From a virus (taxonomy: Duplodnaviria; Caudoviricetes), in IMG/VR virus record IMGVR_UViG_3300020129_000041, positions 1 through 52,946 of that record: a stretch of 52,946 nucleotides of DNA. One strand, given 5' to 3'. The position numbers and the translations under genes are program-made. Shown here piece by piece: positions 5,110-44,161 of this stretch. Positions within the stretch are counted from its first letter, which is position 1, and each line of letters opens with the position of its first letter. The notes beneath the pieces are model-generated. The model was not told the origin of the DNA and ran no database searches. It was given only the letters and a program-made list of their open reading frames with translations.

Positions 5110-5917
5110 CCTGTTCTGCGGCCTTGGCGGCTGGACCGAGGGCTTGCTTGCGGAGGGCTGGGACGTGATCGGGTTCGACATTGAGCAGCACGCATACGGC
5201 GAGCATCGCTATCCAGCGCAACTCGTCCTGCAAGACGTGCTGACGCTGCACGGCTCGCAGTTCCGCTCGGCTGATCTGATCGTCGCCTCGCCGCCGTGCC
5301 AGAAGTATTCGTACATGGCGATGCCGTGGTCGAAGTCGAAAGCGCTGATCGCTTGGTATCTGGAGTCGCCCGAGCGCATCGCCGAACTGAACGCGCTGTT
5401 TGACGCTTGCTTTCGCATCCAGCGCGAGGCGTGCGAGGCCAGCGGTCGGCATATCCCGCTGGTGGTCGAGAACGTGCGCGGGGCGGTTCCGTGGGTCGGC
5501 AGGAGTCGCTGGAACTTCGGCAGCTTCCACCTATGGGGCGACGTGCCCGCGCTAATGCCGATGACGAAGCGCACGGCCATCTTGAAGCCACAGGAGTATC
5601 AGCGGCGGCATGGGACGGGTTCATGGTTCGCAATCGACATGAAGTCGGCGCGAGCAGGAATCACTGATCCGGCTGCGATCAAGCAACCCGGAACGCGCTT
5701 CGACGGCAGCGGCAAGTCGTGGCAGACCGCAGCGGTTGAGGCGACCGGCACGAAGCAGGGCGGCGATTCGTTCAACGATTCGCAGCCGTCAATCTCGCGA
5801 CTCTATGGCAGCAAGAGCAGCAAGCGCAAGGCCGCGTCGGCGCTGATCGCCAAAATACCGCTGGTGCTGGCGCGGCACATCGGCCACTACTGGCATCCCG
5901 ACAGGATCGCGTCATGA
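5093..5917 (+). CDS. DNA (cytosine-5) methyltransferase
   Basis: DLFCGLGG (motif I), SPPCQ (catalytic), ENV (motif VI). AGGAG RBS before ATG 5093. Confidence 0.85.
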   Translation: MPLAIDLFCGLGGWTEGLLAEGWDVIGFDIEQHAYGEHRYPAQLVLQDVLTLHGSQFRSADLIVASPPCQKYSYMAMPWSKSKALIAWYLESPERIAELNALFDACFRIQREACEASGRHIPLVVENVRGAVPWVGRSRWNFGSFHLWGDVPALMPMTKRTAILKPQEYQRRHGTGSWFAIDMKSARAGITDPAAIKQPGTRFDGSGKSWQTAAVEATGTKQGGDSFNDSQPSISRLYGSKSSKRKAASALIAKIPLVLARHIGHYWHPDRIAS

Positions 5918-5945
5918 GTGCCGCCACTCCCGCGAAAGGCGAGCG

Positions 5946-6149
5946 ATGAGCCATCCGATGCAGCACGTACAGAATTTATGCGACATGGCGGCTGCCGATT
6001 CTAGGCGCGTCGCGATCAAACAGGCGATCAAGTGCTGCGAGGATTACGCCGTGGCGATGCAGATCAACCAAGAATTCTTGGCGCACGGAGCGGCCCATGC
6101 GTGTGCCAAGCGCATCCGCGCCCTGCTGGAGCCGAGCGATGAGCGCTGA
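5946..6149 (+). CDS. hypothetical protein, paralog of 1996..2199
   Basis: Identical C-terminal IRALLEPSDER. Confidence 0.65.
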   Translation: MSHPMQHVQNLCDMAAADSRRVAIKQAIKCCEDYAVAMQINQEFLAHGAAHACAKRIRALLEPSDER

Positions 6150-6663
6150 CACCGAGCGCAGGTGCGCCTCCGCTGACGAGATCGCGTATGCGCTGACGCG
6201 ACCGCAGGGTCCGTTCCCCTATCGCCGGTATGTGTGCGTGCCCAACGTCAGTTGGGGCTTGGACTTAGCGGGCGAGGCCGATGTCGTCGCTCTCTCCGGC
6301 TCCGGGTATCTGACCGAGATCGAGATCAAGATCAGCGTCGCCGATTTCCGCCGCGACGCCGGCAAGCGCAAGCACAGGCTTCCGAACGGGAGCGCGCACG
6401 GACTCGTCAGCGCCTTCTACTACGCAATGCCGGATACGATCTGGCCCAAAATTGAAGCCGAGTTTCCGCCGCACGCGGGATTGATCCTTGTCGATGACGA
6501 ATATCGGGCGCGGGTCGTTATCAAAGCGCCGGCGCGAGCGTGTCGCAAGCTCAGAGACGACGAGCGCGAACAGCTCGGGCGCTTGGGGACGATGCGATAC
6601 TGGACGCGGCTCAATCACGGCCAGTGGACCGCCCGCCCCGCCGAGCAGCGCGAGAGGGAGTAA
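6139..6663 (+). CDS. MmcB-like PD-(D/E)XK nuclease
   Basis: EADVVAL...EIEIKISVADFRRD and FYYAMP motifs. Start at MSADTER. Confidence 0.7.
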   Translation: MSADTERRCASADEIAYALTRPQGPFPYRRYVCVPNVSWGLDLAGEADVVALSGSGYLTEIEIKISVADFRRDAGKRKHRLPNGSAHGLVSAFYYAMPDTIWPKIEAEFPPHAGLILVDDEYRARVVIKAPARACRKLRDDEREQLGRLGTMRYWTRLNHGQWTARPAEQRERE

Positions 6664-27947: not shown

Positions 27948-28726
27948 GCCGCCTCCATGAGTTTCCGGTCAAGCAGATGCGCTATCGCTTCGCCGCTGGC
28001 GATCTCGCCGATTCGCCACTGCGCCCAGATCAGGCGCCGGAACATCGCAAGCCGCGCGGCTTGGTCAGTGTTCGGCTCAACGGTCCCGAACTGCTCGAGC
28101 GGTCGGCCAGCGCCGGCCCCGATCCAGTGCTGGAACCCGTACCAGACCGGAACGCCGAGCATGAGCGCGCCTAACGCGGCCGCGCTATTCCAGGTTGCGA
28201 CCGCCGAAATATCGGCCAGATCACGCGCCAGCGCGACCTTTGGCGGATTCGTGCCCGGGTGCGGCCTGATGCGTCCGCCGTACTTGGCGCGCGTCCTTTC
28301 CGCCCATTGCGGCGGGGAGGCAATGCCAGGTTCTCCAATCCCGCGCTGCGCGAGCACCAGCAAGCAGCCAGAACGCTCGCGGAAAGGCGCTAGATCGATG
28401 CCTAATGCATCCCAGCGCTCGGGGTCGCCCTCAGACCAAGTCCCCGCGCCCGCATGGTGTCCTAGGGCCATTGCGAGCCAGGTATCGCCACGCCAGGACT
28501 TGCCTAGATAGCCGTTTTCGACCACGAGCACGGCCGCGCCAGCGCGCTCGTACTGCTTAGCAGCCTCTGCGCTCGCTCCGTAACGGTTCCAGATCACCAA
28601 GGCGTCGCCTGGTGCCGGGTCCGGAATCGACGGCCTGACCGAGAAGCCGGCGGCCGACAGACCCTTCAGGAACGCTGCCCGCCGGTCCTTAAGAGAATCC
28701 CGGATCATGCAGCAGGCGCGGTTCAT
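27944..28726 (-). CDS. KpsS/KpsC-like capsule-polysaccharide glycosyltransferase
   Basis: ENGY, R.HP, TWNS.AA..A...GVP, L..AQW...EI..G motifs. Confidence 0.7.
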   Translation of the reverse strand: MNRACCMIRDSLKDRRAAFLKGLSAAGFSVRPSIPDPAPGDALVIWNRYGASAEAAKQYERAGAAVLVVENGYLGKSWRGDTWLAMALGHHAGAGTWSEGDPERWDALGIDLAPFRERSGCLLVLAQRGIGEPGIASPPQWAERTRAKYGGRIRPHPGTNPPKVALARDLADISAVATWNSAAALGALMLGVPVWYGFQHWIGAGAGRPLEQFGTVEPNTDQAARLAMFRRLIWAQWRIGEIASGEAIAHLLDRKLMEAA

Positions 28727-29484
28727 GCCAGCGCCTCGTCCAGTTTCACGCGCGGGAAGCAGGTCAGGCGCGTGCGCCGGCTGGCATTCCTAACAACGAC
28801 GCCCATTTCTGCCAAGCCCCACGCCAATCGGACGAAATTAGCCGCCCAGATCTCGTATTGCGGAACGCTATGCATGGGCCGCGGGTGATCGCCATGCCAG
28901 TGCGAGCGCCCAACAGCGTCTGCTCCGACGTCGAAGCCGAGCAGAACGATCCGCGCCGCTCCGACTTGATATGCCAGGCCAACCGCCTGATAGCCTCCGT
29001 TCGCACCCTGGTTGATGACTCCGATGCGCTTGCCGAGTCCCGGCTTGGTCTCGCTTCGCACCAAGTGTAGCCGCGTCCATTTCTTCGCGGCGACCTCGTC
29101 CTGGGTCCAAAGCTGGCCGGCGAATGAGTCGAGTTTCTGGTAAAAGGCGTTCCACCAGCGACCGTCGCAGGCGTAGAGGACATCGGCCCAGGGCGCGCGC
29201 TGGTAACTGTTATTGACCACAATCACCCGGCGATCCCTGCCATTGCGCCACGCGCCGACAGCCTCGCAATCCTCAACCGTCAGGCTCGGGCCGCTCGCGA
29301 TCACGACCACGGAAGCGCCGCGCCACGGCAGCGCATCCCAATATAGCCGCTGGCCGACCGGCGCGGCCGCGCCTTCGCTGACCAGTTGCAGAGCGGTCCG
29401 CTCACAGTCGGCAACGAATTCCTGCCCGTCGGCGATCGTTCCGACGCCGATATCCAAGTTTCGGAGGGCGACTAGGCGGGTCAA
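28723..29484 (-). CDS. Maf/MptE-like (DUF115-type) transferase with an N-terminal capsid-accessory-like domain
   Basis: IASGPSL, VVN, D..YA.D..WW, G.QAV.LA...GA..I.LLGFD motifs. Confidence 0.7.
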   Translation of the reverse strand: MTRLVALRNLDIGVGTIADGQEFVADCERTALQLVSEGAAAPVGQRLYWDALPWRGASVVVIASGPSLTVEDCEAVGAWRNGRDRRVIVVNNSYQRAPWADVLYACDGRWWNAFYQKLDSFAGQLWTQDEVAAKKWTRLHLVRSETKPGLGKRIGVINQGANGGYQAVGLAYQVGAARIVLLGFDVGADAVGRSHWHGDHPRPMHSVPQYEIWAANFVRLAWGLAEMGVVVRNASRRTRLTCFPRVKLDEALA

Positions 29485-29798
29485 GCTTCCCTCACCGGGA
29501 GTATCGAGAGCTTCTGGAAGATGCAGCCGTCAGCGCGTTCCACGGTCGCCCGTACCCGATAATCGGCGCCGACCACGCCTCCGCGCATCAGTTGGAACAT
29601 CGCCCCATCCTCCATCCAAGGCTCCGAATCAAGTATAGCCTTCGGGTCAGGATCCTGGACGCGGGAACTCGAATCAATTTCAGCCTCCACGTGCAGCGAT
29701 TTCGCCGCCATCCCGCCGAGTTCCGACCGGAAGTCCCAAGAGATCGGCAACCGCTCCGCCGGGTATTTGAGGTTCAGTCTCACGCCGCTTCCCTCCAT
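29481..29798 (-). CDS. fibre/virion adaptor protein
   Basis: K.P.E......DF and GG..G..Y motifs. Confidence 0.6.
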   Translation of the reverse strand: MEGSGVRLNLKYPAERLPISWDFRSELGGMAAKSLHVEAEIDSSSRVQDPDPKAILDSEPWMEDGAMFQLMRGGVVGADYRVRATVERADGCIFQKLSILPVREA

Positions 29799-36834: not shown

Positions 36835-37824
36835 TTATCTCAGTCTCACTACTGGCTGAGGAGCCGGCGCGCTGCGCGCAACGGCGTCTCCATCCCGTCC
36901 GTCGGTTCCCTTCTTCACGCACAGAATCCAATCATCGCTCTGCCCTGGGCATTCGATTGTTTTCTCGGCGCGGCAATACCATTGCGATCCGCTCCGCGTA
37001 ACCGTATCTCCGAGCTCGTATTGGTCTTGCTTCCACACGCCACGGTTGAGCTGCGTCGGCGTAAAGAATGGCGCCTCGAGCACAGTCCCATTGAGCAGCG
37101 TGAGCAGCATCATGAAATGCCGATGATCTCCCGAGTCCTTGACCTCGAACTTGATACCAGCGAGCAACTTGGGGAGCACGGCATCGGCGACCGTCGCGAT
37201 CACCGAAGGATCATCCGCGCTCTTCCCATCGCGACCCGGCCTTCCGTCGCGCCCTAATTCGCCTTGCTTGCCGCGTAGCCCAGGCTCGCCCTGAACGCCG
37301 AAGCCGTCTTTGCCCTTCAGCGATACCAGCCATTGCTGAACCGTCCCCGCGAAACCTTCCTTGACAGCGAGATCGAACGCGCTTGCTCCAGGCGGCCCCA
37401 TCTCTCCGCGATCACCTTTTATCGACTCGCCTTTTTCGCCGCGCTCTCCGGGTTGCCCATCCTTCGGCTTCGGGACTCGCTCGAGTACGGCAGTTACGAT
37501 GGCATCAACGTCCGGCGCTGGCGCATCCTTTCCAGGCTCCCCATCTTTAGCAGGCGGAAGCGCCTTGAACGCTTGGTCGACCCGCACCAGAACGTCATGC
37601 GTGACCGTCTCAGAGACTTCAGCGGCCAACGCCTTCACGTCCACCGCCGGAGCGTCCTTACCCGGCTGCCCAGGAGCGCCGTCTTTAGGCACAGGAAGCG
37701 CCCTTAGCTTCGCCTCCAATTCATCCACGCGATCCATCAAAGGCGCATAGCGCTTGGCGACATAGCCCTCGATCGCTTGGAACAGTTCCTCCTCGAATTC
37801 CAGCGTCAGGCCGTCATCGCTCAT
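36835..37824 (-). CDS. collagen-like protein downstream of the portal
   Basis: G-X-Y repeats, duplicated KDG.PGKDAP, C-terminal Y..GD.V...GS.W motif. Confidence 0.8.
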   Translation of the reverse strand: MSDDGLTLEFEEELFQAIEGYVAKRYAPLMDRVDELEAKLRALPVPKDGAPGQPGKDAPAVDVKALAAEVSETVTHDVLVRVDQAFKALPPAKDGEPGKDAPAPDVDAIVTAVLERVPKPKDGQPGERGEKGESIKGDRGEMGPPGASAFDLAVKEGFAGTVQQWLVSLKGKDGFGVQGEPGLRGKQGELGRDGRPGRDGKSADDPSVIATVADAVLPKLLAGIKFEVKDSGDHRHFMMLLTLLNGTVLEAPFFTPTQLNRGVWKQDQYELGDTVTRSGSQWYCRAEKTIECPGQSDDWILCVKKGTDGRDGDAVARSAPAPQPVVRLR

Positions 37825-39194
37825 GCGGCGTTCCTTAGTCTGCGCGCGACGCGGGCGAAAGACAGCACCTTGGTCGGCACCTTCGGTTCATTCGGCGTCG
37901 GCAATGCGGGCGGACTCGGATCGGACGCGGCAGGCGTAGCACTCGGAGGCCCGCGCTCGGCGAGCTGGTTGAGCGGGTAATTCTGTTGCTGCAAGTAAGG
38001 CGTCTCGCCACCCTTGACTGGCGGCAGGTCTTCCTTCGCCCGCGCTTCGTTCGGCGAGAACACCGCGCTCTGGATCAGTTTCGAGTAGGTCTCGGCGCGG
38101 GCCTGCGGGTCCATCCTGAGCAAGCCCTCTAGATCGAACTCGACATATTGGCCCGCGGCAAGTCCGAGTCCTTCGCCAAGCAGCGCTTCGATGCCCTCGA
38201 TGTGTTCCTGTAACGCCTGCGAATAGTATTCCTGATTCAACGTCGCCAATCCCGATGCCGGCAACGTCGAGCCGCCAAGTTTGTAAAGCGGAATACCGAA
38301 CGGCCGTACCACGTCCTCGACGGTCCACTTCAGCTGCTCGATCAACTGTGCCTGGTCCGCCGGCATCGTCATGGTCTCGAACTTCATGCCGCCCGTCGTC
38401 ACGAGAATGCGGCCGACGTTGGCGCCGGTAAAGCCTTCGGTAAGTTCCTTTTTCAATTCCGCGAGCCGAGGGTCGGAGATCGTTCCCGGCGCATCCAGAT
38501 GCCCGCTCGGGCGCGACATGTTCTCGAAGAATCGCGCGCTGTTCGCCTGGATCCTTATGCCCTGCGTTGCGCTCGCAGCGCAAGCATAGATGGGCGAGAC
38601 TCCGACCAGCGGATGCCAGAGCGCAGGGCAACGGTCGTGGATGATCTCGCGCGCGGCTACCGTCGGGCTGTCTGTCACACCAGCTAACTGATCCGGAGAA
38701 GCGATCTGATACCAAACGCTTCCGTCACCGCCAACCAACGGCTTGACGTGGAAAGGATTCAGTGGATACAGCGCGATCACAACTCCGCTTCCGTCGCGCT
38801 CCTTTAGGATGTACGAATTGCCATGCATCAGTTTCGACACCATCCACTGCGAGAAGAACTGGATGCGCGTCTGATAACGATTGGGCTTGCGCAGTACCGC
38901 TAGCGCTGCATCGCCTTGCATAACCTCCTGTCCGATGTCGCCAACCTGCCGCATCAGTTTCGGGCGGATCTTGGAAATGTCGCCAGCGATCAAGCGGACG
39001 CAGGCGTAAACCGTGGAGAATGCGAAAATATTGGCGTTGCCGAGCGGTTCTATGTTCCGCTGCCACGCACCGGGGAACATCTCGCGCACGATCCCCCAGA
39101 GCGGCGCAAAGCCTCCTGGCGGAAGCTGCGTGACCATCTCCATGCCTTTTTCAAGGCCGTCATAGTCGCGCTGTGGCTGGGCGAAGAGTCTCAT
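37821..39194 (-). CDS. HK97-family portal protein
   Basis: VYACV..IA, PN..QT, GNSY, G.SP, FF.N...P.G, NEAR motifs. Confidence 0.92.
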   Translation of the reverse strand: MRLFAQPQRDYDGLEKGMEMVTQLPPGGFAPLWGIVREMFPGAWQRNIEPLGNANIFAFSTVYACVRLIAGDISKIRPKLMRQVGDIGQEVMQGDAALAVLRKPNRYQTRIQFFSQWMVSKLMHGNSYILKERDGSGVVIALYPLNPFHVKPLVGGDGSVWYQIASPDQLAGVTDSPTVAAREIIHDRCPALWHPLVGVSPIYACAASATQGIRIQANSARFFENMSRPSGHLDAPGTISDPRLAELKKELTEGFTGANVGRILVTTGGMKFETMTMPADQAQLIEQLKWTVEDVVRPFGIPLYKLGGSTLPASGLATLNQEYYSQALQEHIEGIEALLGEGLGLAAGQYVEFDLEGLLRMDPQARAETYSKLIQSAVFSPNEARAKEDLPPVKGGETPYLQQQNYPLNQLAERGPPSATPAASDPSPPALPTPNEPKVPTKVLSFARVARRLRNAA

Positions 39195-39391
39195 TCCTCG
39201 GCCGTCAGGTCACGGCGCCGGTACTGGCGCTTCATCCGTGGTTCCTGACTCTGCTGCGCGCTATCGTCGGCGGGGCGTGCGGCACCAGAGCGCACGAACT
39301 GCCGTCCTTCAACGTCGTCTGTCTCGAAAGACTTCCCTGGCATGACCATGCCGCCCGGCAGGAAGATCTTCATGTTTGCGATCAATTTCAA
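39191..39391 (-). CDS. small capsid-accessory protein
   Basis: Directly after the capsid gene. G..F......Q.V..GAA and Y.RRDL.AE motifs. Confidence 0.7.
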   Translation of the reverse strand: MKLIANMKIFLPGGMVMPGKSFETDDVEGRQFVRSGAARPADDSAQQSQEPRMKRQYRRRDLTAEE

Positions 39392-39410
39392 AGATTGGCC
39401 TCCGACTGCG

Positions 39411-39444
39411 AAACCGCCGCGCCAAGGCGGACCCTAGCGCGGCG
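39411..39444 (-). terminator. GC-rich hairpin after the capsid gene
   Basis: Minus strand CGCCGCGCTAGG...CCTTGGCGCGGCG-GTTT. Confidence 0.45.
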
Positions 39445-39454
39445 TATTGCGTCG

Positions 39455-41884
39455 CTACAGAGTGATACCGTCCCAGACCACGACTGCGTGCGTGTGCCGC
39501 GGCAGGTAGTTGATGTACCTCTCGGCGCGCAGGGCGATCAAGTTGTTCTGATACAGGGAAACCAGACTGACCGCGCCGCCCGCTGGTGCATCGCTCATCT
39601 CGAGCGATGCCTCCGAGCTCATATCGACCGTCATCGCGCCGTCGTCCGAGAGGAAAATCTCGCTCGGATTCATAAACACGGCGTAAGTCTCGTTGGCCGA
39701 CACTGCGCTGATGTGGATGTTATTGGTCGTCAGGACTGGATAGCCCTTGAACGTTCCGCCCTCTGGTCCGACGTCCGGATATGCGAGGACGCCGTTCGTC
39801 GTGCGGAGCGTGCTCAGGCCGATCGCCGTCCTGGGAGACATTACCCAGACGCAACCCGTCAACGGGATATTGTTATTCGCCAACTCCCCATAGATCTTCG
39901 CGACGTCGGAATCGACGCCGGCAATCGTTGCAGCGCTAAAGTTGATCTTCGTCGCGCCGTTAGTCAGAGAGGCCGGCGAGACGTTGGATACCGCGGCGAC
40001 GTCCGGATCAAGCGCTTGCTCATCGCCGAATTGCGAGATTGCCCGTGCCATGTCGGTCCGGACCGTCTCTTGCGCCGACGGATTGGAGAACCGCACCAGT
40101 TCGTCCGTGGTCACGACGAGGCTCACCTGCTTGGCGAAACGCATCGTGATGAGATCGAACGCAGCCTTCGATAGCGGCTTCGGCGCGCCCTGTCCCGCCC
40201 ACTTGCCAGACGTTCCCGCGGTCATCCTCGGGATGGAGACGTTGAACGGAACGCGGTGGAAATTGTTGATGCGCCCAAGCACTGTCATCGGGCGCAGGAA
40301 TTCGACGAACTCGGAGGCCATCGGCTGCAACTGCACCAACGGACCCGCCCAGCTTCCATCGGTCGTCGTGCCGGCAGCAACTGCGGTCTTGAATGCGATC
40401 TCGACCTCCGGCGTCGAGTCGCGGAACTGCTTCGCGCGTTCGGCCGCCAGCATGAGATTACCGCGGGCGTTCGCCAGACACATCGCGTAGCGAACGAACG
40501 CCATGCCCTTCGGCAGATTTGAGTTGGCGCGAATCACGCCATCGCCGTATTTCACGGTCGACGCCGGCTCGACTACCGCCGCAGCCGCACCGCCGGCCCC
40601 GTTCTTAGCGGGTTCGACCGCTTGGGCGTGCTTGAGTATGAAGGCTTCGTGATCTTTCAGCCGGACGATGTGCTTGTCGCACGTTTCGACTTCGCGCTTC
40701 AGTTCCTCGTATCTCTCGTTTTCCTCCGCGGTCGCAGTGCGGCCTTCCTTGGCCCAAACCGCGACGATTTCGTTCATCGCCGCAGACGACGATGCGCGCT
40801 TCGCCTCGTATTGCGTTACCTGTTCCGTTGTGGTGCTCATTGTTTCTGTTCCTTTGGTTGATTGGGATGAGGTTCCCGAAGCGCCGGGAGGATTCAAACG
40901 CACGACTCGGTCTGCATTTTGGCCTAGCGCGGCCGGCAGTCCTATGTCGTAAGCCTTCACCGAGGTAATACAAGCCTCGACGTTCATTGGTATGGAGACG
41001 GCTGACAACTCGTGCCAGCCCCATTTGGTCCAGCGTGTGGCGAGCGGATTGCCTTTGATCGGCTCGCCTTCGATTCCGCTCCAGCCGATTGATAGTCCGC
41101 GGACAAGTTTGTCGCGTATCTTGACCCATGCGCCTTGCAGATCATCCTTGAGTTGCTGCGGATAGTCGGCTTTCGGTTTCGCGACCATTCCCTTGACCGG
41201 AATGCCCTTGGCATTCGGCGTCGCCGCGGTAATCCAGCCGATTGGATCGGTGATCGAGCCTTTGCCGTGCTGCCAAAGCAGAGGAATCGGGAGCGCAAAC
41301 TCCGCGCCCATCGGATCCATGCTGTCGTCGCCGAAGTCGAGCAGCGGCGTCGATGCGATTCCCTCGAAGGTGTAGGAGTCGCCCGTCTCCCCGACGGCCT
41401 TGATATCGAAAGTCGCCCACGCGATTCGGTGATGGGCCTCTTTTCCTGATGCGGCAGTCGTATCTGCGCCCCACGGCACCGCGATCGTGTCATCGCTGAA
41501 TTTGTCCCGCGCCTTCGCATAGTAGGCGGCAACCTTGCGCTTGACGCCAGCTCGATCAGCGGCCGGGATATCGACCCCGCCGCGCGCGCCCTGCATGACC
41601 GCTGCAACGGCGACGATGGCGTGCCAGACGGAGACCGCCGCGCCGTCGATCACATCCGCGAACTTCAGCTTATAGCCGCTGAAATTCATCTTGTTGCCGG
41701 GATCGCGCCAGAAATGGACCGAGGCGTACTTCTCCCAATCCATCTTGTCCTTATCCCCGCTCCCATCGCTTGACGCCCAGGCGCGGATGCGCGTCTCCGC
41801 CTCGTTGTCGATATAGGCGCGGTCGCGCTCGTCCGATAGGGGAATGTCCGTCGAGCCGGACGCCGCCTTGGTCTGTTCGCTCAT
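39455..41884 (-). CDS. N-terminal domain + HK97-type prohead protease + major capsid protein fusion
   Basis: EGIAST, LLWQH, GLSIG, ELSAVSIP.N (protease). Capsid motifs WVMSP, YQNN..ALRAER. Confidence 0.9.
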   Translation of the reverse strand: MSEQTKAASGSTDIPLSDERDRAYIDNEAETRIRAWASSDGSGDKDKMDWEKYASVHFWRDPGNKMNFSGYKLKFADVIDGAAVSVWHAIVAVAAVMQGARGGVDIPAADRAGVKRKVAAYYAKARDKFSDDTIAVPWGADTTAASGKEAHHRIAWATFDIKAVGETGDSYTFEGIASTPLLDFGDDSMDPMGAEFALPIPLLWQHGKGSITDPIGWITAATPNAKGIPVKGMVAKPKADYPQQLKDDLQGAWVKIRDKLVRGLSIGWSGIEGEPIKGNPLATRWTKWGWHELSAVSIPMNVEACITSVKAYDIGLPAALGQNADRVVRLNPPGASGTSSQSTKGTETMSTTTEQVTQYEAKRASSSAAMNEIVAVWAKEGRTATAEENERYEELKREVETCDKHIVRLKDHEAFILKHAQAVEPAKNGAGGAAAAVVEPASTVKYGDGVIRANSNLPKGMAFVRYAMCLANARGNLMLAAERAKQFRDSTPEVEIAFKTAVAAGTTTDGSWAGPLVQLQPMASEFVEFLRPMTVLGRINNFHRVPFNVSIPRMTAGTSGKWAGQGAPKPLSKAAFDLITMRFAKQVSLVVTTDELVRFSNPSAQETVRTDMARAISQFGDEQALDPDVAAVSNVSPASLTNGATKINFSAATIAGVDSDVAKIYGELANNNIPLTGCVWVMSPRTAIGLSTLRTTNGVLAYPDVGPEGGTFKGYPVLTTNNIHISAVSANETYAVFMNPSEIFLSDDGAMTVDMSSEASLEMSDAPAGGAVSLVSLYQNNLIALRAERYINYLPRHTHAVVVWDGITL

Positions 41885-41888
41885 CGCG

Positions 41889-42101
41889 TCACCTCACGTA
41901 AACGACGCCCGGTTTCTTAGTCTCCAGAGCAGCAACGGCCTTCGGTGCCTTCGCTTTCTTGGCCCCGGTCATCGCCTCGTGCGCCGACTGCGCCATGCCC
42001 ATCATCTTCTGTATATCGGCCGCCGGCATCGGCTCGCCGCTCGAGACGCAGGCGTCCATCATGTCGATCATATCCGCGATGTTGCCGATTGCGCCGCTCA
42101 T
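41889..42101 (-). CDS. small Met-rich hypothetical protein
   Basis: ATGA-coupled chain. Confidence 0.5.
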   Translation of the reverse strand: MSGAIGNIADMIDMMDACVSSGEPMPAADIQKMMGMAQSAHEAMTGAKKAKAPKAVAALETKKPGVVYVR

Positions 42102-42256
42102 TTCTTGCCTCTCGGTTTCGGTTTGGGTTTCGGCTTAAGTACGGCCGGAATCTGGTTCGGCGGAACGAGCGCTGGCGTGTTCGTCGTCGACATCGGCGCG
42201 ACGTCGCCCTTCGTCTTTTCCTTGCCCTGTCCGGTCAATTTCGCCCAGGTGCCCAT
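42098..42256 (-). CDS. small basic Pro/Lys-rich protein (52 aa)
   Basis: Hand translation MGTWAKLTGQ...KPKPKPKPRGKK*. Coupled at both ends. Confidence 0.5.
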   Translation of the reverse strand: MGTWAKLTGQGKEKTKGDVAPMSTTNTPALVPPNQIPAVLKPKPKPKPRGKK

Positions 42257-42423
42257 CAGAGTTTCCCCATGACGGCGAGGATCAGGACCACGATCAAGAC
42301 GAGGAATATCAATCCCGAGCCGGCGTAGGGAACGCCTAGCGGCAGGCCGCCGAGCAGGATCACGATCAGGATGATGAGCAACACGACGGCGAGCGTCGAC
42401 ATACCTTTCTGGAACGTTCTCAT
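42256..42423 (-). CDS. two-TM small membrane protein, DUF3309-like (55 aa)
   Basis: Hand translation ...LLIILIVILLGGLP...SGLIFLVLIVVLILAVMGKL*. AAAGGAG RBS. Confidence 0.65.
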   Translation of the reverse strand: MRTFQKGMSTLAVVLLIILIVILLGGLPLGVPYAGSGLIFLVLIVVLILAVMGKL

Positions 42424-42445
42424 GCGAACTCCTTTGCGTAGGCGT

Positions 42446-44161
42446 TCATACGACCATGACCCGAAAGCGCTGCTCTTCCTCGCGCTTTAGCGACCGGCCG
42501 GCGGCCATCACTGCGGCGACAATGCCGTCGATCCGGCCGGTGGAGCGCTGCTTAGTCGGCTTACGGTTTCCGGCCGGGTCGGTATCGAGCACCACACTAG
42601 CGGCGTTCCAAGTCATCAGCGGATTGCCGTCATGCTTGAGCTCGCCCGCCTTTAGCATCCGCTCGTACTCGTCGACCGCGGGCGCCATGTCCTTCCAGCC
42701 CTGACCGAATGAATGAAGCGGCAGTTCGATCCCTTCCGTGCTCGCGAACTGGAGCAAATCCTCAATCCGGTAGCGGTCATAGCCGATCGATTGGACCTCG
42801 TATTTCTGTGCCGCATCGACTAAGCGGGCGAGCACGAAAAGTTTATCGATCGCCGATCCCGGCGTGGTCTCCAGCCAGCCCGCGGCGCGCCAAGTCCCGT
42901 AATGGGCGCGGTCCGCCCGTTCCTTCTCCGCCAAGGCCTCCGCGGGGAGCCAGAACCAGACCTTTTGCCGCCAGATCGGATCGTCGCCGGTCGGTTCGAA
43001 GAGCAGCGCGAAGGCGGTCAGGTCCGTGGTCGATGCCAAGTCCAGACCGCCAAAGCAGCGCCGGCCGAGCAGCCGCGCATCATCGAATTCCGCATCCTCG
43101 GCCCGCTTCCAGGACTCGTAGGAGAGCCACGGATTGGCCGCATCGGTCCACTGGCAGAAATTAAGGCGCCGCACTGTCGCCTCTTTCGACGGCATCCCGC
43201 GCGCTTGGAGCACCTGCTCGCGCAGGTACTGCGGCTGGATGGTGATGCCGAGTAGCGGGTTTGCTTTCGGCCAGCAAGACTCGTCCGAGAACGGGTCGTC
43301 GTCGACGTCGAGCGCGCACACGTAGCCGAAAAAGGCGTCATCGGTCAGCGAGCCGTCGCAGACCTTGCGCGCGTATTCGTGATACTCCCAGCACACCGAC
43401 TGCCGGTCGGTCCCGCTATTGGTGATGAGCACGATCAGCGGCTGGCGGCGCCCTTTCAGGCCCGCGCGCATCATCTCGACCATCAGCGCCGACTTGTGCT
43501 CATGCACCTCATCGCCGAGCGAGCAATGCGGGCGCGGCCCAGACTGCGAATCATCGCTTGAGATCGGGCGGAAGAACGACGCCGTATGGTCGTCGTAGAT
43601 GTTCCACTCGCTGCCCTTGCCGCCGGCGCACTTTAGCGCTTGGCTAAGTTCCGGCGACTGTTCGACCATCGCCACCGCATCCCGGAAGAGGATTTGCGCC
43701 TGGTCCCGCTTGGTCGCGAACGCGTAGACTTCGGCCCGCGGCTCGTTGTCCGCCGAGAGCATCTTGAGCCCAATCCCCGCCGCCATCGGCGACTTGCCGC
43801 TGCCCTTGCCCTCCTCGATGTAGGCCATCCGGAAGCGCCGGGTACCGTCGGCCCGCTTCCAGCCGAACAGGCTGCCAACGATAAACTCCTGCGATTCGTG
43901 GAGCTCGAACTCCCGCCCCTCGAACTCGCCGCCGTTCAGACGCAGGATCTCGCGAAAGAACCGGAAGGCCTCGCCAGCCTCATGCTCATCCCATTCCAGC
44001 CCTCGCTTCGGCCCGTCCTCCAAGTCCCGAAGATGCCTAAGGCACGCCGCGCGGACGTGCGGGCCGGCGACGGCTTGCCCTTGGGAAACCCGTTGGGCAT
44101 AGGCCGTCACCGGATCAGCTCCGGAACGAGGCAAGCCCCGTCTTCGGCTTTTGCGCGGCAT
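42446..44161 (-). CDS. terL: terminase large subunit
   Basis: GKGSGKS Walker A, DEVHEH, GLDLAST.D, RIDG.VA motifs. Confidence 0.95.
   Translation of the reverse strand: MPRKSRRRGLPRSGADPVTAYAQRVSQGQAVAGPHVRAACLRHLRDLEDGPKRGLEWDEHEAGEAFRFFREILRLNGGEFEGREFELHESQEFIVGSLFGWKRADGTRRFRMAYIEEGKGSGKSPMAAGIGLKMLSADNEPRAEVYAFATKRDQAQILFRDAVAMVEQSPELSQALKCAGGKGSEWNIYDDHTASFFRPISSDDSQSGPRPHCSLGDEVHEHKSALMVEMMRAGLKGRRQPLIVLITNSGTDRQSVCWEYHEYARKVCDGSLTDDAFFGYVCALDVDDDPFSDESCWPKANPLLGITIQPQYLREQVLQARGMPSKEATVRRLNFCQWTDAANPWLSYESWKRAEDAEFDDARLLGRRCFGGLDLASTTDLTAFALLFEPTGDDPIWRQKVWFWLPAEALAEKERADRAHYGTWRAAGWLETTPGSAIDKLFVLARLVDAAQKYEVQSIGYDRYRIEDLLQFASTEGIELPLHSFGQGWKDMAPAVDEYERMLKAGELKHDGNPLMTWNAASVVLDTDPAGNRKPTKQRSTGRIDGIVAAVMAAGRSLKREEEQRFRVMVV

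Follow-up and report, generated by a model that had tools for sequence, protein, structure and literature searches.

A phage enzyme with a Maf/CstII-like core shares its N-terminal module with a small protein encoded after the capsid gene

A phage genome fragment of 52,946 bases (IMG/VR virus record IMGVR_UViG_3300020129_000041; completeness estimate 68%), hereafter called the window, encodes a 253-residue enzyme with a Maf/CstII-like core (28723-29484) and, between its capsid and portal genes, a protein of 66 residues (39191-39391); these and all other features of the window mentioned below lie on the minus strand. We report that residues 1-43 of the enzyme (29356-29484) are homologous to residues 1-40 of the small protein (39272-39391), i.e. 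that both proteins begin with the same module, which resembles the Pfam family DUF7210. The original prediction, made by eye from the letters of the window, had assigned exactly this segment of the enzyme to a reused copy of the small post-capsid protein. Its coordinates were right, and reuse of the module by the two proteins is borne out by profile-profile alignment, a six-frame search, AlphaFold2 models and conservation in homologues.

Smith-Waterman alignment (BLOSUM62) of the enzyme with the small protein reached a score of 41, with 12 identities in 40 columns and one gap, and this optimal local alignment is the one that had been drawn by eye. BLASTP with composition statistics did not report the alignment of the two window proteins, and the pairwise signal alone is therefore marginal. 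Shuffled versions of the small protein reached the score in 3 of 2000 cases against the whole enzyme (z 4.6) and in none of 2000 against its first 60 residues (z 5.4). The silence of BLASTP and the three successful shuffles, together with the many protein pairs that were compared when the similarity was first noticed, would fit a coincidental likeness of two short segments with similar composition. Such a coincidence is, however, contradicted by the comparison of families. In hhalign, a profile of enzyme N-termini (47 sequences, 43 columns) matched the small-protein family (8 sequences) in register over 41 columns with a probability of 96.8% and an expectation value (E) of 2.8e-10, while the control alignment of the enzyme core with the small family gave nothing (probability 0.06%). 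When the whole record was searched in all six frames with a hidden Markov model (HMM) built from 92 small-protein sequences, exactly two sites emerged, which are the small gene itself (39194-39388, E 7e-22) and the start of the enzyme gene (29356-29478, E 9.5e-4, model positions 2-41). With the predicted topologies of the two segments being identical as well, we regard coincidence as highly improbable.

The AlphaFold2 model of the enzyme places strands at residues 2-6, 10-12, 15-17 and 22-25, a helix at 28-36 and a strand at 40-42, with a predicted local distance difference test (pLDDT) above 90 for the module; in the small protein the corresponding elements are strands at 2-5, 9-11, 14-16 and 21-23, a helix at 26-35 and a strand at 38-40, with pLDDT around 90 over residues 1-40. 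Compared by the order of their elements, both models have the same predicted beta-beta-beta-beta-alpha-beta topology. Both genes start with a TTG codon that has a short motif six bases upstream (GAGG for the enzyme, whose TTG overlaps the upstream stop codon, and GGAGG for the small protein, whose M-K/R-L-I-A start is kept in homologues). The module is conserved among the enzyme homologues. Searches returned 630 relatives of the enzyme at E <=0.001, and of the best 120 listed, 73 span 95% or more of the query, with its N-terminus; among 54 aligned homologues (47 of near-full coverage and 7 short ones), 47 carry the module. A word-based search for short stand-alone relatives of enzyme residues 1-55 gave no candidates, and an ESM Atlas look-up with residues 1-45 gave no usable match.

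The link to DUF7210 (PF23843), a Pfam domain of 38 residues to which no function is assigned, comes from the small-protein family. Three of the six small-protein homologues scanned passed its gathering cut-off of 27 bits (P0153 with 32.5, P0148 with 30.8 and P0223 with 30.0 bits), each matching model positions 1-38. In the profile search the small protein of the window groups with these DUF7210-positive proteins, and the enzyme N-termini match the same family in the profile-profile alignment described above. The likeness extends to conserved glycine, phenylalanine and alanine positions that follow the same pattern.

The remainder of the enzyme, residues 44-253 (28723-29355), comprises a linker and a catalytic core that is Maf/CstII/MptE-like according to phrog_4603 and Foldseek. 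Family phrog_4603, annotated as 'alpha-2,3-sialyltransferase', matched residues 62-253 only (E 4e-45), and the module is thus an addition to the core family. Pfam MptE-like (PF01973) matched residues 154-187 only, with 19.3 bits (E 0.0011) and under its cut-off of 34.6; with E allowed up to 0.1, it recognized 48 of the 54 enzyme homologues, the best one at 1.9e-7. Foldseek matched the core to CstII (1ro8 and 1ro7) and Maf (5mu5) with probability 1.0 and template modelling (TM) scores of 0.44-0.55, those for CstII 1ro7 and 1ro8 being given as 0.44-0.49 and the value for 5mu5 as 0.55 on query length, and to the MptE-type HPPK 8sd5 with probability 1.0 and TM scores of 0.38-0.43; sequence identity to these solved members of the GT42-like, MptE-like fold is 9-18%. 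The core differs from Maf in size, with about 190 residues compared to 632 in 5mu5, and the protein differs from Maf and CstII in being encoded in a phage head or neck module. By its predicted fold the core would be nucleotide-sugar-transferase-like, and it might act as a transferase on a head protein; the role of an initiating transferase, which the original prediction had assigned to it, found no support beyond the Maf/CstII-like fold.

Relatives of the enzyme in other phages suggest that the small protein and the fusion belong together. Searches of phage genomes with tblastn returned 77 records, and the loci fetched comprised 80 viral ones and 44 from bacterial genomes. In Pseudomonas phage D3 (NC_002484; locus 5691-6409) the gene directly following the capsid gene is orf6.5 (5691-5978), the product of which has a module-like N-terminus. 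Inside orf6.5, but in the -1 frame relative to it, the enzyme core starts at 5843. At 5837-5843 lies the heptamer C CCA AAG, in phase with orf6.5, and a -1 slip on it leads straight into the enzyme core. The fused product would have a spacing like that of the window enzyme, as the first invariant tryptophan falls at about position 55 by hand count in D3 and is W54 in the window enzyme. The annotated start of D3 orf7 at 5951, and likewise that of its counterpart in phage U7, cuts off a conserved N-terminal core motif. The D3 arrangement was also seen in locus L002 and in many of the loci L008 to L131.

To count such cases, a locus was classified as frameshift-type under strict criteria, i.e. 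when the core frame contained no ATG, GTG or TTG between the upstream stop codon and core residue 54, when the overlap spanned at least 100 nucleotides, and when the upstream open reading frame (ORF) reached at least 90 nucleotides further upstream. Two viral loci with fewer than 200 nucleotides upstream of the core and three bacterial loci with the N-terminal part of the core unmatched were left out. Among the 78 analysable loci on viral contigs, 53 are of the frameshift type, 9 are in-frame fusions and 16 have other arrangements; the respective numbers for the 41 analysable loci of bacterial genomes are 15, 1 and 25. Five annotated phages fall under the other arrangements, D3 and U7 solely through one in-frame TTG located 39 nucleotides upstream of the core. 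A heptamer of the type X XXY YYZ is present in phase at 43 of the 53 viral frameshift-type loci (8 and 7 loci for the two remaining phases) and at 8 of the 15 bacterial ones (2 and 1, respectively). Looser criteria, applied to the 80 viral loci plus D3 and U7, gave 68 overlap loci in 14 clusters at 50% identity; no in-frame start was found in 62 of them, and the heptamer was in phase in 55 versus 10 and 11 in the other phases. Module-like HMM matches upstream of the core lie in the core frame or in the frame of the upstream ORF, and never in the third frame.

The largest group of these loci (28 distinct sequences) carries the heptamer at a fixed place, with a 9-bp stem starting 5 nucleotides after it. 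Compensatory changes occur in eight of the nine pairs of this stem. Pairing is preserved in 89.3% of cells as compared to 73.4% in shuffled alignments, and covariation amounts to 0.54, compared to 0.26 for shuffles and 0.10-0.20 when the partner strands were slid; for either measure, none of 500 shuffles reached the observed value. The genomic setting is that of head genes. Of the 68 frameshift-type loci, 64 have a capsid-gene match before the core, the median distance from its end to the core being 263 nucleotides, and terminase, portal or capsid matches were found near 35 of the 44 bacterial loci, which indicates that these loci are prophage head modules. The upstream frame runs 45-115 codons past the slip site. 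The unshifted products of D3 (L001), L010, L085, L131 and others end in strongly basic tails, several of them with an AT-hook-like R-G-R-P motif. A Ser/Pro/Ala/Gln-rich motif within these tails was considered as a functional element and rejected, since it is, in the D3 sequence, at least partly the enzyme motif read in another frame; only the basic end therefore looks independently selected. From the sequences compared, we consider it very probable that these relatives make the module-enzyme fusion by programmed -1 frameshifting out of the small gene, in which case small product and fusion form a conserved pair.

In the window the same pair is encoded differently. The enzyme is one continuous ORF of 253 codons with its own start, and no frameshift is needed to join module and core. 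Locus L007 likewise has a small module-bearing gene between capsid and portal genes along with an enzyme fused in frame, L011 partially matches the small protein at that place, and L041 and L095 share the gene order with a gap of 170-180 nucleotides where the small gene would be. In L063 the gene order is D3-like, with the fusion in frame and directly after the capsid gene. Set beside the D3-like loci, these encodings indicate that the pair of small module protein and module-enzyme fusion is conserved, while the mode of encoding varies. That one post-capsid locus of the D3 type would yield both products lends independent support to the link between enzyme and small protein.

Production of a short and a long protein sharing one N-terminal module is reminiscent of the lambda tail assembly chaperones G and GT, which are reportedly generated by a frameshift as well. 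In that system, the module directs both forms to one partner, and the long form contributes an extra activity at lower dose. The D3-like relatives resemble this system in that a -1 slip on X XXY YYZ gives both products, presumably at a fixed ratio, within a cluster of structural genes. They differ in the location of the site, which closely follows the capsid gene within the head module, and in that the extension is enzyme-like instead of a chaperone domain; the window differs further, as its fusion is in frame and its short product has a gene of its own. By analogy, the module may be a shared targeting domain that would bring small protein and enzyme to the same partner, the enzyme in smaller amounts. 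The most probable candidate for this partner is the prohead lattice built from the major capsid protein, and the enzyme would there act on a component of the head. For this explanation as a whole, comprising a two-domain enzyme, a shared targeting module and the capsid lattice as partner, our confidence is evenly balanced.

Several results weigh against it, and some of them concern the frameshift and the family of the module. A canonical in-phase heptamer is missing from 17 frameshift-type loci, 10 among the 53 viral and 7 among the 15 bacterial ones, and the RNA downstream of the slippery site of D3 folds no better than shuffled sequences (z 0.81). The match of the enzyme-module profile to the upstream modules was weak both for D3 and for the largest group (probability 22-26%, E around 1e-3), and an iterated HMM recruited only 20 of 58 distinct upstream ORFs. 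DUF7210 itself matched neither the small protein nor the enzyme N-terminus of the window at E up to 10, and with a limit of 0.1 it did not match any of the 54 homologues of the enzyme. We regard both window modules as divergent relatives of DUF7210 and not as formal members.

Further opposing points come from the enzyme. Its AlphaFold2 model (pLDDT 96.3; predicted TM score 0.91; linker pLDDT 92-97) has the module firmly packed on the core, and packing this rigid is more what one would expect of an integral domain than of a loose tether. In addition, module-free stand-alone enzymes exist, namely P1 PmgO, PAJU2 gp10 and CcrPW, all of them counted among the other arrangements above, and hence the module is dispensable for the enzyme as such. 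These features would be in line with a different role, in which the module belongs to the enzyme proper, serving for instance as a lid, a wall for acceptor binding or an oligomerisation element. Kinship with the small protein would then be purely historical, going back to an ancestral overlapping or frameshifted pair that was resolved into two genes, and the enzyme would act on a soluble or tail substrate without docking on heads. The confident packing, the location of the stand-alone enzymes in tail or neck contexts and the distance of about 10 kb between the enzyme gene and the head genes of the window favor this possibility, as does the company of the enzyme gene, its neighbors being fiber-adaptor-like, glycosyltransferase-like and methyltransferase genes. 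However, a frameshift with two products that recurs in 14 clusters and in several bacterial classes is most simply understood if the module has one function common to the two products, and the small product lacks an enzyme core to which its module could belong. We therefore rate a purely integral module as rather unlikely.

As to the partner of a targeting module, a comparison can be drawn with gpFI, the DNA packaging chaperone of phage lambda. When the AlphaFold2 model of the small protein was compared with representative structures, the C-terminal domain of gpFI (2lsm), which is reportedly the head-binding part of that protein, matched with Z 4.5 and a root-mean-square deviation (rmsd) of 1.4 A over 41 residues at 24% identity, which is weak on a scale on which the tool calls Z below about 8 common. 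The gpFI sequence also aligned in register with the combined module profile over 35 columns, again in its C-terminal domain (hhalign E 1.6e-4; hmmsearch E 1.5e-4). The two systems are alike in gene position, as FI directly follows the capsid gene E of lambda just as the small gene follows the capsid gene of the window, and in layout, as either protein has two parts, with a disordered linker leading from a small folded domain to another element, which is charged. The order of these parts is reversed, the folded domain being C-terminal in gpFI and N-terminal in the window protein, and the other end is SAP-like in gpFI compared to a short basic motif in the window protein. We know of no enzyme fusion of gpFI. 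The module may thus be kin to the head-binding domain of gpFI, and gene position together with this resemblance points to the capsid lattice as the partner. According to PMC4856287, gpFI is bound to the gpE lattice and acts via non-specific DNA binding, and PMC13595911 describes gpFI as a bridge from the capsid to the complex of terminase and DNA, bypass mutations being known in both terminase and capsid.

The gpFI comparison has its opposing side, too. The hhalign match reached a probability of 50%, and Pfam Packaging_FI (PF14000), which recognizes lambda gpFI itself with 199 bits, did not match the small protein or the enzyme N-terminus of the window at E up to 10, nor six upstream-frame ORFs of relatives at the same limit. 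In the fold search, N-domains of ribosomal protein bL9 and GINS B-domains ranked above gpFI, all of them under Z of about 8. The bL9 N-domains gave Z 5.1-5.8 with rmsd 1.0-2.6 A over 37-54 residues, e.g. 8rd8_C1 (Z 5.7, rmsd 1.8 A, 46 of 49 residues) and 9d89_h (Z 5.1, rmsd 1.0 A, 37 of 38 residues), and so cover nearly the whole domain, at 22-24% identity. Against a closer relation to bL9 stand the phage context, the absence of any Pfam ribosomal-family match to the window proteins and Z values in the range regarded as common. A lower-ranking match was B. subtilis YqbF (Z 3.4). A profile search of the sequences of solved structures with the small family yielded a single coat-protein match, which was rejected as spurious (E 7.4).

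The rank of the bL9 N-domains, which bind nucleic acids, raises the possibility that the shared partner is some other component of packaging or head completion, namely DNA itself or else, for instance, the portal or the terminase. Such a partner would agree with the overlap between the stop codon of the small gene and the start of the portal gene, and with the basic tails, some with R-G-R-P, of the upstream-frame products of relatives. On the other hand, a conserved basic surface is not evident on the module, which is acidic in the enzyme and basic in many small proteins, and in D3-like genomes the protease and capsid genes stand between this gene and the portal gene, and the gene always comes after that of the capsid. 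We consider a portal, terminase or DNA partner improbable. As for the capsid itself, a complex prediction with the capsid domain (residues 490-809) and the small protein, run without controls, scored 0.03 relative to a mark of 0.32, and this speaks neither for nor against binding.

The original prediction had gone on to propose that the reused module docks the enzyme on the procapsid. Reuse of the module stands; docking on the head we consider plausible from gene position and the weak structural match to gpFI, with the capsid as the putative partner, and the original idea would then be broadly right. A wider generalization is possible, although we lean against it: in many phages and prophages, a gpFI-like lattice-binding module would be shared by a chaperone-like protein and a Maf/CstII-like enzyme, either through a -1 frameshift as in D3-like loci or through two genes as in the window, and the enzyme, delivered to proheads in sub-stoichiometric amounts, would attach sugars to the capsid or to some other protein of the head while it is being assembled.

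If the module does target the head, it would provide a built-in route by which a modifying enzyme is sent to assembling capsids, and candidate virion-glycosylating enzymes would be at hand in many proteobacterial phages; to our knowledge, virion glycosylation has so far been described mainly for mycobacteriophages. DUF7210 would gain a testable function, and packaging chaperones of the gpFI type would extend beyond lambda-like sequences. Likewise, the apparent frameshift in the head module of the long-studied phage D3 and its relatives would represent a new conserved recoding site, with a logic like that of the tail proteins G and GT, and the annotation of D3 orf7 and its counterparts would have to be corrected, as the annotated starts cut into the conserved core. 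A literature search, with thin coverage of subscription journals and with supplementary files outside its scope, found no paper on the module-enzyme fusion, none mentioning DUF7210, nothing, judging by titles and abstracts, on a frameshift in the D3 head genes, and nothing on frameshifting in connection with a phage sialyltransferase; looking for virion proteomics of PAJU2 was fruitless, too.

The part of the small protein that follows the module (39194-39271; pLDDT 58-72) consists of a disordered acidic linker and a conserved basic tail formed by the last 13 residues (39194-39232). Relatives of the small protein numbered 8 in a single-sequence search of 1.8 billion representatives and 481 in a profile search. 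In this family the linker is variable, acidic or proline-rich, and the basic C-terminal motif ends in D-L-T-A-E. Of 120 family members, 109 show the pattern aromatic-x-[RK][RK]-D-[LM]-x-x-[ED], and Y57, R59 and D61 are invariant in 92 family sequences. Some members (P0124, P0126, P0139 and P0156) carry the basic motif, ending in D-L/M-T-A-E, twice in tandem.

The structural genes of the window start with the large terminase gene (42446-44161), which is followed by a gene for an 809-residue fusion of prohead protease and major capsid protein (39455-41884) directly upstream of the small gene. Residues 157-380 of the fusion match the protease family phrog_80 and residues 548-803 match Pfam Phage_capsid (E 3e-15), while the major head protein family phrog_617 matches with E 4e-106; approximately 155 N-terminal residues of this precursor are covered by no family. 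The portal gene (37821-39194; Pfam Phage_portal, E 5e-82), the start of which overlaps the stop codon of the small gene as mentioned, comes next. This order of terminase, protease-capsid fusion, small gene and portal (37821-44161) is unusual in that the portal gene lies after and not before the capsid gene, and it recurs in L007, L011, L041 and L095.

The enzyme gene is preceded by an ORF of 105 codons (29481-29798), the stop codon of which overlaps the TTG start of the enzyme; its product is weakly similar to gp77, the fiber-tail adaptor of podophage GP4 (Pfam E 9.7e-5, under the cut-off). Listed after the enzyme gene are a 260-residue protein without family, a weakly glycosyltransferase-like protein and a methyltransferase. 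A conserved cassette of enzyme, protein of about 270 residues and methyltransferase, common to the window and to D3 and PAJU2, was considered and dropped because the BLASTP matches were insignificant (window 260-residue protein versus D3 orf12, E 0.048; methyltransferases, E 0.86). A member of the enzyme family in phage P1, the stand-alone PmgO (L003, 2441-3103), is annotated with a 'putative morphogenetic function', and its gene is located near ppp and pmgQ, the latter annotated as a glycosyltransferase.

Between the portal gene and the adaptor ORF of the window lie a gene for a collagen-like protein with repeated P-x-K-D-G motifs (36835-37824), directly after the portal gene, and genes for several large proteins without family matches. 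The collagen-like protein could be a head fiber and a candidate substrate of the enzyme. It is also present in L006, L007, L019, L025 and L099, and in several relatives its gene is located directly upstream of the fused Maf-like gene.

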